A DNA stretch of 33,016 bases from Escherichia coli (GTDB taxonomy: Bacteria; Pseudomonadota; Gammaproteobacteria; Enterobacterales; Enterobacteriaceae), in assembly GCF_003334385.1 (NCBI RefSeq), contig NZ_QOWN01000050.1, one strand, 5' to 3'. The notes beneath the pieces are model-generated. The model worked only from the letters and a program-made list of their open reading frames with translations, did no database searches and was not told the DNA's origin. Below, piece after piece: positions 2,316 to 20,075 of this stretch (position 1 is the stretch's first letter; each line of letters starts with the position of its first letter). The translations under genes were made by a program, and so were the position numbers.

Positions 2316-2562
2316 AACCTTCTCCGTTAACCTGGTATTTGTTGCTTGTTGTGTTTGCTTGTTTAAAAAAATGCCGCAAAGCAGCACTGTGCGCAAGCGA
2401 TTTGGCGGTGAAAAAATAAAAAACGTAATGGTGATTGTCGATTGGTGAAAAAAGGTCTGGTGTGAGGATATATTTATTGATGAATCGATAATTTTTAGCG
2501 GGTTTTATTGAATGTTTATATTTTACGGGGGCCAAATTGCTGACAAAGTGCGATTTGTTCAT

Positions 2563-2661
2563 GCCGGATGCGGCGTGAACGCCTTATCCGGCCTACAAAA
2601 GCATGAAAATTCAATATATTGCAGGAGCTGCGTAGGCCTGATAAGCGTAGCGCATCAGGCA
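2563..2661. repeat. RIP/BIME-type element (two inverted REP units around a central linker)
   Basis: GCCGGATGCGGCGTGAACGCCTTATCCGGCCTAC ... GCAATATATTG ... GTAGGCCTGATAAGCGTAGCGCATCAGGCA. Same family as the elements at 10974..11073 and 18401..18500, in inverted orientation. Confidence 0.8.
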
Positions 2662-2711
2662 GTTTGGCGTTTGTCATCAGAGCCAACCACGTCCGCAGAC
2701 GTGGTTGCTAT

Positions 2712-6749: not shown

Positions 6750-7081
6750 TATTCACCTCAATAAGTAAAATGTAAGCCGTTGGCGGATTAGGCATCTTTA
6801 AGCGTAACCTGGATTTGCGCAGACAGGCGTCAATCCGACCTGATTTTTTGAATGATAAAATAAGTTTTCTGGTTTAGCCAGTAAAAGGGAGTGATGATAA
6901 CGATATTTGGTGACAAAACTCACAAAAGACACGCGTTTAATTTGCGATACGAATTAAATTTTCACACACTCTGTAGCAGATGATCTAACAATCTGATTAC
7001 AGAACATCGGCAGTACAATTTGCAGCAAAATAAAAATACGGCTTGAAACGAGCCAAATAGGGTTCTCGTAGGGGGAATAAG
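6750..7081. promoter_or_regulatory. divergent nagB / nagE promoter-operator region
   Basis: A 332-bp AT-rich intergenic region between divergently transcribed nagB and nagE. From established knowledge it carries two NagC operators and a CRP site; I cannot place the exact sites by eye. Confidence 0.6.
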
Positions 7082-9028: not shown

Positions 9029-9076
9029 TCTGCTTTATGCCTGATGCGACGCTTGAGCGTCGCATCCAACAATGAC

Positions 9077-9110
9077 AAGCGGTGGAGATCTTCTCTGCCG
9101 CTTTTTTTTT
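9077..9110 (+). terminator. rho-independent terminator after nagE
   Basis: Imperfect GC stem AGCGGTGG...CTGCCGCT followed by T9 (9101..9110). Confidence 0.6.
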
Positions 9111-9230
9111 CATCAATCATCCCCATAATCCTTGTTAGATTATCAATTTTAAAAAACTAACAGTTGTCAGCCTGTCCCGCTTATAAGATCATACGCCGTT
9201 ATACGTTGTTTACGCTTTGAGGAATCCACG

Positions 9231-10895
9231 ATGAGTGAGGCAGAAGCCCGCCCGACTAACTTTATCCGTCAGATCATCGATGAAGATCTGGCCAGTGGTA
9301 AGCACACCACAGTACACACCCGTTTCCCGCCGGAGCCGAATGGCTATCTGCATATTGGCCATGCGAAATCTATCTGCCTGAACTTCGGGATCGCCCAGGA
9401 CTATAAAGGCCAGTGCAACCTGCGTTTCGACGACACTAACCCGGTAAAAGAAGATATCGAGTATGTTGAGTCGATCAAAAACGACGTAGAGTGGTTAGGT
9501 TTTCACTGGTCTGGTAACGTCCGTTACTCCTCCGATTATTTTGATCAGCTCCACGCCTATGCGATCGAACTGATCAATAAAGGCCTGGCGTACGTTGATG
9601 AACTGACGCCGGAACAGATCCGCGAATACCGCGGCACCCTGACGCAACCGGGTAAAAACAGCCCGTACCGCGACCGCAGCGTTGAAGAGAACCTGGCGCT
9701 GTTCGAAAAAATGCGTGCCGGTGGTTTTGAAGAAGGTAAAGCCTGCCTGCGTGCGAAAATCGACATGGCTTCACCGTTTATCGTGATGCGCGATCCGGTG
9801 CTGTACCGTATTAAATTTGCTGAACACCACCAGACTGGCAACAAGTGGTGCATCTACCCGATGTACGACTTCACCCACTGCATCAGCGATGCCCTGGAAG
9901 GTATTACGCACTCTCTGTGTACGCTTGAGTTCCAGGACAACCGTCGTCTGTACGACTGGGTACTGGACAACATCACGATTCCTGTTCACCCGCGCCAGTA
10001 TGAGTTCTCGCGCCTGAATCTGGAATACACCGTGATGTCCAAGCGTAAGTTGAACCTGCTGGTGACCGACAAGCACGTTGAAGGCTGGGATGACCCGCGT
10101 ATGCCGACCATTTCCGGTCTGCGTCGTCGTGGTTACACTGCGGCTTCTATTCGTGAGTTCTGCAAACGCATCGGCGTGACCAAGCAGGACAACACCATTG
10201 AGATGGCGTCGCTGGAATCCTGCATCCGTGAAGATCTCAACGAAAATGCGCCGCGCGCAATGGCGGTTATCGATCCGGTGAAACTGGTTATCGAAAACTA
10301 TCAGGGCGAAGGCGAAATGGTTACCATGCCGAACCATCCGAACAAACCGGAAATGGGCAGCCGTCAGGTGCCGTTTAGCGGTGAGATTTGGATTGATCGC
10401 GCCGATTTCCGCGAAGAAGCTAACAAGCAGTACAAACGTCTGGTGCTGGGTAAAGAAGTGCGTCTGCGTAATGCTTATGTGATTAAGGCAGAACGCGTCG
10501 AGAAAGATGCCGAAGGTAATATCACCACCATCTTCTGTACTTATGACGCCGATACCTTAAGCAAAGATCCGGCAGATGGTCGTAAAGTCAAAGGTGTTAT
10601 TCACTGGGTGAGCGCGGCACATGCGCTGCCGGTTGAAATCCGTTTGTATGACCGTCTGTTCAGCGTGCCTAACCCAGGTGCTGCGGATGATTTCCTGTCG
10701 GTGATTAACCCGGAATCGCTGGTGATCAAACAGGGCTTTGCTGAACCGTCGCTGAAAGATGCGGTTGCGGGTAAAGCATTCCAGTTTGAGCGTGAAGGTT
10801 ACTTCTGCCTCGATAGCCGCCATTCTACGGCGGAAAAACCGGTATTTAACCGCACCGTTGGGCTGCGTGATACCTGGGCGAAAGTAGGCGAGTAA
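9231..10895 (+). CDS. glnS: glutaminyl-tRNA synthetase, 554 aa
   Basis: Begins [20 protein letters not shown]; class I HIGH motif ([14 protein letters not shown]) and a VMSKR variant of KMSKS. Confidence 0.95.
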
Positions 10896-10911
10896 TTTTA
10901 AGTTTCGCTAT

Positions 10912-10942
10912 GCCGGATGGGGCGTTTACGTCGCATCCGGCA
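10912..10942. repeat. single REP unit
   Basis: GCCGGATGGGGCGTTTACGTCGCATCCGGCA immediately after the glnS stop. Confidence 0.7.
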
Positions 10943-10973
10943 AGGAACAGACAAACAGTTTCAAACGCTAAAT

Positions 10974-11073
10974 TGCCTGATGCGCTACGCTTATCAGGCC
11001 TACATGATCTCTGCAATATATTGAGTTTGCGTGCTTTTGTAGGCCGGATAAGGCGTTCACGCCGCATCCGGCA
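10974..11073. repeat. RIP/BIME-type element
   Basis: TGCCTGATGCGCTACGCTTATCAGGCCTAC ... GCAATATATTGAG ... GTAGGCCGGATAAGGCGTTCACGCCGCATCCGGCA. Confidence 0.8.
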
Positions 11074-11093
11074 AGAAACAGCAAACAATCCAA

Positions 11094-11119
11094 AACGCCG
11101 CGTTCAGCGGCGTTTTTTC
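11094..11119 (+). terminator. rho-independent terminator at the end of the glnS transcript
   Basis: AACGCCGCGTTCAGCGGCGTT hairpin followed by TTTTTT. Confidence 0.7.
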
Positions 11120-11451
11120 TGCTTTTCTTCGCGAATTAATTCCGCTTCGCAATTTATCCATAAAATAAATTTAAAATAACAAAACATAATTAAATAAAAT
11201 GTAACCGCTTTCATCTTGCTGGAATTTCACGCTTTTATTCTTCTGCAAGCCTTTCAACCGCAAACTTAAGCCTTGTAACAAAAATCATCAAAATATGTGC
11301 GGTTGCTCATGTTCTTACATTCTGGTTACAGAAAGAGATTGATAATTCGCGTCGCGAAAAATAGTCTGTTCCTGTAGTCAGCGAGACTTTTCTCAACGCT
11401 ACTTTTTTAATTTTTATTTTTTCGCTGTTCACCTTTGGTGCAGCAATTTAT

Positions 11452-18336: not shown

Positions 18337-18353
18337 ACACATTTAATAAAAAA

Positions 18354-18380
18354 AGGGCGGTCGCAAGATCGCCCTTTTTT
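18354..18380 (+). terminator. rho-independent terminator after pgm
   Basis: AAAGGGCG-GTCGCAAGAT-CGCCCTTT followed by a T-run. Confidence 0.75.
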
Positions 18381-18400
18381 ACGTATGACAAACACAGAAT

Positions 18401-18500
18401 TGCCTGATGCGCTACGCTTATCAGGCCTACGAGGATGGTGCAATATATTGAATTTAAGCGATTTTGTAGGCCGGATAAGGCGTTCACGCCGCATCCGGCA
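18401..18500. repeat. RIP/BIME-type element
   Basis: TGCCTGATGCGCTACGCTTATCAGGCCTAC ... GCAATATATTGAAT ... GTAGGCCGGATAAGGCGTTCACGCCGCATCCGGCA. Confidence 0.8.
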
Positions 18501-18549
18501 AAAACAACGAACACTTTGTCAACAAACTGAGTAGCTCAAGGAAATCCCA

Positions 18550-19044
18550 ATGAAGACCAACAGGAGTCTGGTCGTCATAGTGTCACTAATTACCGCCACA
18601 TTACTGCTGACTGCATGCGCCCAACCTGAACAATCATCATTAGCTGGCGACTGGTTACTGACCCCTAAAGATAAAACCAGAGGATTAACGGGTAGCATTG
18701 CGGTAAATATTGCACCTTTCCGGTGTAAGACAAATTGCCGTGGTGATAACTTACCTGATAATACCCGCCGCTGGCAGTTGTCAGGCGGGAACGAAAAAGA
18801 ACTTACTTATCTTCATAATATGTCAGCACAAGAAAAGGTCGGTTTAAATCCCGGTTGGCAATGCTACACCTCATTTTTTATGCGGGTTTGCCAGGGCAAG
18901 CCCGGCACTCGACCGATAGTCAATGAGGATTATGTCAGCGAAAGCGGATTTTTTGGCTCGATGATGCATGTCGGGATTATTGAGTTACGACGCTGCCAGT
19001 CAGAAAATTGCCAGCAAGAATTGAAAGCGATAAATACACATTAA
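18550..19044 (+). CDS. ybfP: lipoprotein YbfP, 164 aa
   Basis: Signal peptide with lipobox LTAC (MKTNRSLVVIVSLITATLLLTACAQ). Confidence 0.8.
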   Translation: MKTNRSLVVIVSLITATLLLTACAQPEQSSLAGDWLLTPKDKTRGLTGSIAVNIAPFRCKTNCRGDNLPDNTRRWQLSGGNEKELTYLHNMSAQEKVGLNPGWQCYTSFFMRVCQGKPGTRPIVNEDYVSESGFFGSMMHVGIIELRRCQSENCQQELKAINTH

Positions 19045-19084
19045 AATAGTGAGTCCGGGAATGAAACCCGGACCTGAACATGTC

Positions 19085-19735
19085 TTATTGCGTGAATGTT
19101 TCTTTCATTTGATACTGCATTTCCCAGAGTTCAGTAAGCGAAATAACTTTTCTTGTTCTTGCTTCTTCACTTTGTACCCATAAGAAAGGGTAGAACGTGA
19201 AGGCTTCCGTTGCCGATAATTTTATTACGTCTTCTCGCCATTGCTGCCATCGTACATTTTCATAGAAGGTATCTAAATCACCGGATAATGCCCACTGAAG
19301 AAACTCAGAATATCCAACTTCCAGACTTTCCCAATTCAGCGTATCTGGCGCAAAATAATAAACGCAGCCAGTATCTTCCCCAAGATCGCCACCATTAAGA
19401 GCAAAAATTCCCCCTGCGACATCGTCAGCGATGGGTAAAGCCCGCACGCCTGCGAATTCAGGGCGTTGTGTCCAACTTACTGGATCTCGTGGCAACCGGG
19501 GGTGACCAGATCCTGCTATGCGTAACCAACCATTATCAATCAGCAGACCTCCGGAGCCATAGACAAGCGCACCCATCGGTGATTTTGTTGTCACCTGTAA
19601 TTGATAAAGTGCGGTTTCGGCTAAATCTTTATTAACCGGTAAGAGTTCGGTATGGTTTGTGGCGTCTTTTAACCAGTTCTGGATTATTGGCCAGGCTGAA
19701 TCTTCAGTATTTACTAACTGATTCATTTCACGCAT
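19085..19735 (-). CDS. ybfG: uncharacterised protein YbfG (I recall DUF2625 family), intact here, about 216 aa
   Basis: The track ORF runs 19085..19843; I place the start at the internal ATG (19733..19735), which has AAGGAG 9 nt upstream. Confidence 0.6.
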   Translation of the reverse strand: MREMNQLVNTEDSAWPIIQNWLKDATNHTELLPVNKDLAETALYQLQVTTKSPMGALVYGSGGLLIDNGWLRIAGSGHPRLPRDPVSWTQRPEFAGVRALPIADDVAGGIFALNGGDLGEDTGCVYYFAPDTLNWESLEVGYSEFLQWALSGDLDTFYENVRWQQWREDVIKLSATEAFTFYPFLWVQSEEARTRKVISLTELWEMQYQMKETFTQ

Positions 19736-19856
19736 CGCTACTTGCTCCTTGTGTGCTACGGTGTCATTTATGATGAGGAATTGTATGGAACATTTTTTAA
19801 ATATTAAGTTCCTTATATTTGAATAAAAAATGACTTTATCCATACATTGCCACTTT

Positions 19857-19989
19857 TTTCAAAGCATAAACCGATACCCAATACCGGTTTCAGTAATAAA
19901 ATGGCGAGGCCGGGCCGGATCCTGTTCCAGTTTTTGTCGCAGATGCCCCATATAATTACGCAAATAGTTGCTGTGTTCGATCGCGTTTA
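19857..19989 (-). pseudogene. 3' remnant of a kdpE-like response regulator (C-terminal winged-helix, about 44 codons)
   Basis: About 90 percent nucleotide identity to the 3' end of kdpE at 24195..24330, same orientation, in frame, with the stop conserved: LNAIEHSNYLRNYMGHLRQKLEQDPARPRHFITETGIGYRFML. No N-terminal receiver domain or start codon. I think K-12 annotates this as pseudogene ybfI but am not certain. Confidence 0.6.
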
Positions 19990-20044
19990 GACCCTACATC
20001 TGCCGGATGCGGCATAAATAACGAACTATTTGCCAACAAACAGA

Positions 20045-20075
20045 AAGGGCGATCATTCAATCGCCCTTTTTTACT
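20045..20075. terminator. rho-independent terminator downstream of potE
   Basis: GGGCGAT-CATTCA-ATCGCCC hairpin with T-rich flanks on both strands. Confidence 0.75.

Follow-up and report, generated by a model that had tools for sequence, protein, structure and literature searches.

The 33,016-nucleotide stretch of Escherichia coli DNA analysed here (contig NZ_QOWN01000050.1 of assembly GCF_003334385.1; hereafter the window) carries three copies of a short repeat, one each near nagD/umpH, glnS and pgm, referred to as copies 1, 2 and 3. We are confident that these belong to the BIME-1 family, also named RIP or RIB, a small non-autonomous repeat of Escherichia and its close relatives that encodes no gene. 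The elements themselves are already known as textbook repeats of E. coli K-12, and in sequence they agree with BIME-1/RIP/RIB in their arms, linker, single-unit arrangement, 3′ position and flank motifs (partial in copy 2), with a putative IHF (integration host factor) site in the linker. Beyond this identity, we found that the full unit is larger than its core, that all three copies are polymorphic for insertion or deletion among E. coli genomes, and that copy 3 and other members of the family are flanked on both sides by a local, terminator-type hairpin. This flanking hairpin-duplication pattern is well supported in itself, and a tentative account of how the element moves can be built on it.

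A first-pass annotation of this DNA had proposed three RIP/BIME-type repeats that share inverted REP (repetitive extragenic palindrome) arms and a conserved centre, and all three were recovered within 1 nt of the places it gave (2562–2661, inverted, 10974–11073 and 18401–18500; Table 1), with copy 1 on the strand opposite to copies 2 and 3. Each element consists, in order, of a 30-nt z1 REP (TGCCTGATGCGCTACGCTTATCAGGCCTAC), a 35-nt linker, L, and a 35-nt y REP (GTAGGCCGGATAAGGCGTTCACGCCGCATCCGGCA). By aligning the three copies with one another, we found a mean column identity of 88% over ~120 nt; the inverted REP arms were 100% identical across all three copies, and the linkers, identical pairwise at 23–25 of 35 positions, had the invariant centre TGCAATATATTGA. 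Exactly three occurrences of the string TCAATATATTGCA were counted in the window, one in each element, and a search that allowed up to two mismatches returned six matches versus 0.85 expected (0 of 100 shuffles gave six). Predicted-fold Z-scores for the three copies were −6.5, −3.8 and −6.0. Each locus in the window has one unit, with no tandem arrays, and the only complete REPs in the window are seven, those of the three doublets plus one single REP. The latter, which had been noticed as an extra REP downstream of glnS, is real (10911–10942) and of the y type, with 86% identity over 42 nt to the y arm of copy 2 and the spacer downstream of it (11040–11081). Elsewhere in the window, a degenerate REP-like hairpin (TGCCTGATGCGACGCTTGAGCGTCGCATCC) was seen at 9036–9068, directly past the nagE stop codon, with a terminator-like hairpin and T-run after it at ~9078–9112.

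The RIP/BIME-type label was correct, as this anatomy is that of the published BIME-1 definition (PMC3333891, PMC1187871): an inverse pair of z1 and y REPs, present as a single copy, with a long and well-conserved linker L that frequently includes a site for integration host factor (IHF) (PMC3333891), and a size of ~140 bp for Y plus Z1 (PMC1187871). The name RIP is used for a REP element that contains an IHF site (PMC2892488). Features shared with the family include the inverse z1 and y arms, whose GTAG/CTAC tails face a conserved ~35-bp linker with a putative IHF-type site, the presence of one copy per locus at the 3′ ends of transcription units, a length of ~140–150 bp with flanks, and polymorphism among isolates; the differences are that copy 2 is without the right-flank motif and that the left flank of copy 3 is truncated. 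The name RIB is said to go back to Boccard and Prentki in 1993, RIP to Oppenheim, Rudd and colleagues in the same year, and BIME-1 to Gilson, Bachellier and Hofnung. No repeat features are listed at the three loci in the RefSeq tables of strains MG1655 and W3110.

To place the copies within their family, we scanned one genome from each species for two REP tails 25–50 nt apart, which listed at least 120 loci; of the three window loci, only the pgm locus (in E. coli E69) is represented among the family loci surveyed. Among the matches listed, the same architecture was found in E. albertii, E. coli, E. whittamii, two Pseudocitrobacter species and Citrobacter, and the linker was 35 nt long in 81 of the 130 matches listed. 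A 52-nt consensus centred on L was present in all 5426 complete E. coli genomes, at a median of at least 32 places per genome. One E. albertii locus (L013, 6973–7479) holds three BIME-1-like units in tandem (starts at 6973, 7120 and 7415), while BIME-1 is described as single-copy. Typical BIME-1 copies were also found on contigs of 262–720 bp from Desulfosporosinus sp. OT (L036) and Alkalicoccobacillus porphyridii (L098 and L099, both with a coverage of ~1), where contamination of the assemblies with enterobacterial DNA is the likeliest source.

The approximate length of 100 bp first given for the repeats proved too short. With its flank motifs, the full unit is an imperfect palindrome of ~152 bp, composed of a 23-nt terminal motif, z1, the 35-bp L, y and a 29-nt terminal motif, and similarity to copies at other sites in E. 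coli genomes covers 145–155 bp. Alignment of 105 listed copies gave (T)GAGACTGATGACAAACGCAAAAT as the conserved left-flank motif and nGAACAAnGCGCACTTTGTCAGCAATCTG(A) as the right-flank motif; together these two form an imperfect inverted repeat, and they are paired in the predicted folds of copies 1 and 3. The unit ends in the imperfect terminal inverted repeats GAGACTGATGACAAA and CAGATTGCTGACAAA. Both flanks of copy 2 are affected, with only a remnant of the left motif and no right one (Table 1).

We then considered the linker, whose centre had been suggested to be an IHF site, a suggestion with which the sequence is consistent. Read on the y-to-z1 strand, the three centres have the form A[T/C]TCAATATATTG together with an A-tract, and core and A-tract are spaced as in the lambda H′ site. 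This form departs from the strict consensus WATCAANNNNTTR at a single base, position 2. A scan of the window with WATCAANNNNTTR gave two matches elsewhere, which is the chance level. The distance between the core, TCAA-N4-TTG, and the upstream A-tract is the same as in lambda attP H′ (as taken from the lambda record), and the three centres are among the six best of ~66,000 window positions for a match to H′, in register. The A-tract, TCAA and TTG(CA) have the spacing that they have in attP H′, with 21–23 of 38 positions identical; unlike it, the three copies have T or C for A at consensus position 2 and lie in a repeat and not at a recombination site. The same motif recurs across the family, where TCAA-N4-TTR was present on the y-to-z1 strand in 87 of 127 listed linkers versus 1.2 expected from shuffles. 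In 78 copies from other genomes whose listed linkers are 35 nt long, the best-conserved columns are the A-tract adjoining the y REP, TCAA and TTG, and their consensus is AAGGTTTCTGCAATATATTGAATTTGCACGATTTT, which the window linkers match at 27–28 of 35 positions. Given the enrichment of TCAA-N4-TTR, the conserved A-tract, TCAA and TTG columns and the H′ spacing, an IHF site is the best reading of the linker centre on these sequence comparisons. Binding of IHF to the BIME-1/RIP/RIB family was reportedly described by Boccard and Prentki in 1993 and by Oppenheim et al. in 1993. The text of Prieto et al., in which IHF chromatin immunoprecipitation evidence for the three loci was sought, does not mention REPs.

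With regard to gene context, the 3′ intergenic position claimed earlier is true of all three copies, and each has the z1-L-y orientation relative to its upstream gene. Copy 1 is located at the 3′ end of nagD/umpH and upstream of asnB, beyond a GC-rich hairpin that follows the nagD/umpH stop codon and abuts the copy. Copy 3 comes directly after the pgm terminator and before ybfP. The intrinsic terminator of glnS is downstream of both the single REP and copy 2, and both are therefore within the glnS 3′ untranslated region (UTR; stop codon at 10895). The first-pass annotation had placed a terminator beside every copy, which holds for glnS and pgm; the hairpin at copy 1 has no T-run, and it is also present in the empty alleles of that locus. 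In a crude survey of the listed copies, based on open reading frames (ORFs), 72 of 73 classifiable family copies were downstream of at least one gene, and the 73 were distributed as 40 between convergent genes, 32 in tandem contexts and 1 in a divergent context, which is a strong positional bias. Within tandem contexts, z1 came first in 22 copies versus y in 10, the three window copies included, a marginal bias resting on the same crude ORF calls.

Within E. coli, all three copies are insertion/deletion polymorphisms. Over its whole length, the window itself aligns with K-12 MG1655 (NC_000913.3, ~696,863–729,878) at 99.94% identity, with 20 differences, none of them inside the repeats; in MG1655 coordinates, the linkers of copies 1, 2 and 3 are at ~699,459–699,493, ~707,866–707,900 and ~715,293–715,327. 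By counting alleles in the 5426 complete E. coli genomes, we found the K-12-type allele in 2280 genomes for copy 1 (nagD-asnB), 2457 for copy 2 (3′ of glnS) and 2087 for copy 3 (pgm-ybfP). Presence or absence of BIME-1 from isolate to isolate has already been published (PMC1187871). At the copy 1 locus, the empty allele of O157:H7 and M-17 has 19 unrelated bases instead of window positions 2526–2685. The short allele at glnS (L002, L003 and L005) has 131 bp less and consists of glnS, one y REP, a spacer and the terminator; the single y-type REP of the window corresponds to the sole REP of this allele, which is carried by ~55% of E. coli genomes. Since 131 bp is the spacing of the two direct y REPs, the K-12 allele amounts to a y REP plus spacer duplicated around z1-L. 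A chimeric allele downstream of glnS was also seen in O157:H7 TR01 (L004, 301–603), where a REP, the terminator and a fragment of z1 and L are followed by a repeated glnS 3′ end, REP and terminator; this could be a rearrangement or a misassembly.

At the third locus, O157:H7 and Nissle have one bidirectional terminator common to pgm and potE, and E. coli E69 (L103) has terminator, BIME-1 and terminator, without the ybfP-ybfI genes. In the window, a 1.5-kb ybfP-ybfG-ybfI segment is also present after the right flank of the element, and the 1692 bp between the two pgm/potE terminators (18383–20074, comprising copy 3, ybfP, ybfG and ybfI) are absent in O157:H7 and Nissle. Two insertions of IS1 were observed near these loci, one in NT1F25 (L132) downstream of glnS and past the terminator (an estimate from annotated coordinates), and one in E308 (L133) between copy 3 and ybfP. 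These positions gave no evidence for targeting of RIPs by IS1.

The two terminators around copy 3 prompted a family-wide test of the flanks, in which 110 nt to the left and 110 nt to the right of the unit were compared by local alignment in 103 listed copies. Direct-repeat scores of at least 18 were obtained in 23 of these 103 copies, as against 0.7% of permuted pairs. After removal of tandem arrays and REPs, a locus-specific direct repeat was found in 32 listed copies and abutted the unit in 23. Of these 32 copies, 18 had exactly 23 nt between the end of the left repeat and z1, and 20 had exactly 29 nt between y and the start of the right repeat. Abutting repeats were 16–39 nt long (median 22), all 23 fold as GC-rich hairpins, and most show an A-run, stem, loop, stem and T-run in succession, as a bidirectional terminator does. 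In a position-anchored version of the test, an identity of at least 14 of 16 was reached by 21 of 105 listed copies versus 0 of ~500 permuted pairs. Examples come from Escherichia and Pseudocitrobacter (L081, L053, L112, L046, L049, L052 and L121).

Three pairs of filled and empty E. coli alleles, at pgm-potE, fdnI-yddM and uvrB-yvcK, confirm the duplication, as the empty allele has a single hairpin in each. In E. coli E69, the second pgm/potE hairpin comes directly after the right flank of the element. At fdnI-yddM (L109/L138 versus L134/L135), one hairpin is present in JJ1886 and E24377A, and AAAATGGCGCCTTTTACAGCGCCATTT stands on both sides of the element in E69 and O157:H7; at uvrB-yvcK (L102 versus L137), N4220121 has one hairpin and E69 has two. 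As the hairpin sequence differs from locus to locus, it is derived from the target and is not part of the element, and the idea that the hairpins belong to the mobile unit was rejected on this ground. Two findings led us to reject a snap-back (palindromic) origin as well: in 18 of the 23 abutting repeats the direct score was higher than the inverted score, and every copy shows the same asymmetry of z1 versus y and of left versus right flank. Intact duplications occur most often in Pseudocitrobacter (12 of 35 copies) and less often in E. coli, which fits younger copies in the former. A separate observation concerns E. coli GPT24-01 (L136), where an IS200C copy directly adjoins the left foot of the fdnI-yddM terminator hairpin, the one that flanks BIME-1 in duplicate in other strains; this insertion did not duplicate the hairpin. 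The duplication is unmentioned in PMC3333891, PMC2817692, PMC3733652, PMC1187871 and PMC3479197, a set that does not cover the original BIME/RIP papers of 1991–1999, and we offer it as a lead and claim no discovery.

These observations could be brought together in one account, which we regard as possible and still doubtful as a whole: BIME-1 may be a 152-bp element resembling miniature inverted-repeat transposable elements (MITEs), integrating specifically at hairpins of the intrinsic-terminator type by nicks at both feet (one per strand), with duplication of the whole hairpin, the two ends of the element brought together by an IHF bend, and clean 'excisions' through recombination between hairpins. 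As for the three copies themselves, they probably inserted at hairpins of 3′ intergenic regions by a process akin to transposition, and the mover would probably be a REP-associated tyrosine transposase (TnpA-REP/RAYT), as the literature on these enzymes suggests. Cuts at both hairpin feet would leave a target-site duplication of variable length, its extent being determined by the structure of the hairpin. IHF bound to L, at a putative site formed by the A-tract and (A/C)TTCAA-N4-TTG on the y-to-z1 strand, would introduce a sharp central bend that brings together the two REP arms and the two ends. Loss of a copy would occur by recombination between the two duplicated hairpins, restoring the empty site. 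RAYT/TnpA-REP cleaves and recombines BIMEs in vitro, on single-stranded DNA (PMC3333891, PMC3479197), and the authors of the RAYT structure call the mechanism of REP propagation unclear (PMC3479197). Where a BIME-1 lies inside a transcript, which was shown for copy 2 only, it would add stable REP hairpins to the 3′ UTR, and these copies may thereby stabilise the upstream mRNA or attenuate transcription; at the level of the family, mRNA stabilisation, transcription attenuation and binding of IHF, gyrase and Pol I have been described (PMC3333891, PMC3184786, PMC9023263).

Several points weigh against this overall reading of the three elements. Copies 1 and 2 are without a clean hairpin duplication: copy 1 has a hairpin on one side only, and copy 2 has a duplicated REP and spacer and no right flank, a structure that could result from later deletions or from recombination with the resident REP. 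None of the three centres matches the strict 13-nt IHF consensus exactly, and the window contains no transposase, the RAYT (tnpA-REP) gene included. Because copy 3 is past the pgm terminator and copy 1 is past the nagD hairpin, a role in mRNA is doubtful for both. Furthermore, each copy is missing from more than half of E. coli genomes, so that none is needed by the flanking genes.

The strong bias toward gene 3′ ends, the location of copy 2 and the single REP within the glnS 3′ UTR upstream of its terminator, and the family effects on mRNA, transcription and binding of IHF, gyrase and Pol I cited above would be expected of host regulatory modules under selection at nagD, glnS and pgm, serving as 3′-UTR stabilisers, attenuators or supercoil barriers and being neither mobile nor selfish DNA. 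We consider such an explanation unlikely, as each copy is missing in 55–62% of the 5426 E. coli genomes with the flanking genes intact, and copy 3 is outside the pgm transcript. Moreover, the arms are 100% identical among the copies while the surrounding intergenic DNA has diverged among strains, which fits recent spread or homogenisation and not locus-specific selection.

Another explanation keeps the mobility and changes the enzyme, in that the element would be a MITE whose terminal inverted repeats of ~15 bp are recognised in trans by a conventional (DDE) transposase, with the REP arms and RAYT uninvolved in its movement. The unit does end in imperfect inverted repeats (GAGACTGATGACAAA and CAGATTGCTGACAAA), direct target duplications at the flanks are the classical MITE signature, and Y1 transposases of the IS200/IS605 type are not known to make such duplications (PMC2817692). 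A DDE transposase, however, has a fixed stagger, whereas the duplications here range over 16–39 nt and correspond to whole hairpins; no parent IS with these ends was found, although no search aimed at one was made; and it is RAYT that cleaves and recombines BIMEs in vitro (PMC3333891). We judge this explanation improbable, somewhat more so than selection for a host module.

It has to be asked, finally, whether the centres encode small RNAs belonging to Rfam family ES036 (CssrF), in which case the repeat would matter as a transcript with its own fold. The ES036 model (RF02751) matches copy 1 at 2597–2639 with 41.1 bits, above its gathering score of 37.6, and copies 2 (− strand) and 3 with 28.9 and 24.7 bits, both below it. 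CssrF has been seen as an RNA in Shigella, where Northern blotting detected a species of ~290 nt between dacB and yhbZ (PMC3071730). The 43-nt model, however, is effectively the L linker plus a REP tail, and hence it matches any BIME-1. In each copy, the strand that the model matches runs antisense to the upstream gene, and three scans found no promoter-like site facing it; the only two promoter-like matches on that strand, ~150 nt from the centres of copies 1 and 2, correspond to a chance-level rate. Across 79 distinct linkers, the five core hairpin pairs were broken in 8–20 sequences per pair and compensated in 1–3, and RNAalifold gave a covariation term of −0.1 for 105 copies, with only invariant pairs between the arms. 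With no covariation, and more pairs broken than compensated, the RNA-structure reading of the linker was rejected, and small-RNA genes are by far the least credible explanation of these centres.

None of the three elements is a BIME-2, a naRNA4 or an ES036 RNA gene. They have the y REP in common with BIME-2/REP325 and its RNA, naRNA4 (Rfam RF02564), whereas BIME-2 itself has z2 in place of z1, short linkers without an IHF site, tandem arrays and strong gyrase binding, none of which applies to the three copies. The y arm aligns to the y half of the naRNA4 model, and the z2 half exceeds the other arm by 7 nt, which makes that arm the short z type; with best scores of 42.5 and 41.5 bits versus a gathering score of 59.5, and only the y half aligned, membership in naRNA4 was rejected. 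REPINs (Bertels and Rainey), for which RAYT/TnpA-REP is the proposed mover, likewise are inverted REP pairs forming a long imperfect palindrome, non-autonomous, strain-polymorphic and present in dozens of copies per genome. Unlike REPINs, BIME-1 combines two kinds of REP, z1 and y, places a long linker with a putative IHF-type site between them and has further motifs at its outer ends. Correia elements/NEMIS, the MITEs of Neisseria, are intergenic and often co-transcribed, measure ~150 bp, have terminal inverted repeats and are flanked by a target duplication. This duplication is a fixed TA dinucleotide, in contrast to the whole hairpin of 16–39 nt in BIME-1, and Correia elements have no REP arms and no sequence similarity to BIME-1. 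Correia elements have a central IHF site (PMC3184786), as BIME-1 is predicted to have.

Table 1 Features of the three BIME-1 loci in the window, with strand and basis of assignment. Fractions give positions identical to the family consensus or, for IHF-type sites, to lambda H′.
Feature	Position	Strand	Basis and remarks
Copy 1 right-flank motif TGAACAAATCGCACTTTGTCAGCAATTTGG	2532–2561	−	27/30 to consensus; within 2526–2685, missing from O157:H7 and M-17
Copy 1 y REP	2562–2596	−	Exact match, GTAGGCCGGATAAGGCGTTCACGCCGCATCCGGCA on − strand
Copy 1 L linker	2597–2631	−	27/35 to family consensus
Copy 1 IHF-type site (putative)	A-tract 2597–2600, core ATTCAATATATTG 2609–2621	+	21/38 to lambda H′
Copy 1 z1 REP	2632–2661	−	Exact match, TGCCTGATGCGCTACGCTTATCAGGCCTAC on − strand
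Copy 1 left-flank motif CTCTGATGACAAACGCCAAAC	2662–2683	−	19/24 to consensus; pairs with right-flank motif in fold
GC-rich hairpin past nagD/umpH stop codon, abutting copy 1	2684–2707	−	Fold; no T-run, no terminator call, unduplicated
Single y-type REP downstream of glnS stop codon	10911–10942	+	
Spacer duplicating spacer 11074–11099, then left-flank remnant CAAACGCTAAAT	10943–10973	+	Pairwise alignment; 13/24 to left-flank consensus
Copy 2 z1 REP	10974–11003	+	Exact match
Copy 2 L linker	11004–11038	+	28/35 to family consensus
Copy 2 IHF-type core ACTCAATATATTG (putative)	11014–11026	−	23/38 to lambda H′
Copy 2 y REP	11039–11073	+	Exact match; no right-flank motif after it (8/30)
glnS intrinsic terminator (AAAACGCCGCGTTCAGCGGCGTTTT + T-run)	11092–11123	+	Terminator scan, fold
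pgm terminator hairpin + T-run, left copy of duplicated target hairpin	18349–18382	+	Single copy in O157 and Nissle
Copy 3 left-flank motif, truncated, GTATGACAAACACAGAAT	18383–18400	+	17/24 to consensus
Copy 3 z1 REP	18401–18430	+	Exact match
Copy 3 L linker	18431–18465	+	28/35 to family consensus
Copy 3 IHF-type core ATTCAATATATTG (putative)	18441–18453	−	21/38 to lambda H′
Copy 3 y REP	18466–18500	+	Exact match
Copy 3 right-flank motif AAAACAACGAACACTTTGTCAACAAACTG	18501–18529	+	23/30 to consensus
y-REP head fragment + second right-flank motif	20001–20043	+	Far end of ybfP-ybfG-ybfI segment
Second pgm/potE terminator hairpin, right copy	20044–20074	+	81% identical to 18352–18382

The window as a whole covers the asnB-nag-glnS-chiP-fur-pgm-potE-speF-kdp region, preceded on the − strand by three tRNA genes (6–77, 104–185 and 198–271) that are part of the metT-leuW-glnUW-metU-glnVX cluster. 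Within the segment that follows copy 3, an ORF of 252 amino acids is open at 19085–19843, where the MG1655 annotation has the ybfG pseudogene, and two of the 20 differences from MG1655 (at 19410 and 19527) are inside it; the differences as a set, these two included, mark the source as a strain near K-12 MG1655 and not identical to it. A direct repeat of 145 nt with 90% identity joins 19858–20002 and 24194–24338, such that the ybfI pseudogene fragment copies the 3′ end of kdpE.

The above analyses suggest that the three repeats as such matter little, and that they had been rightly named. Their practical value is that the differences in intergenic length among E. coli strains at nagD-asnB, glnS-chiP and pgm-potE are gains or losses of BIME-1, and that Rfam ES036 matches in enterobacterial intergenic DNA are BIME-1 linkers and not small-RNA genes. 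If it is true that BIME-1 is bounded by a duplicated local terminator hairpin, this would constrain models of how the family moves, since the target would be a hairpin and the cut would fall at both of its feet.

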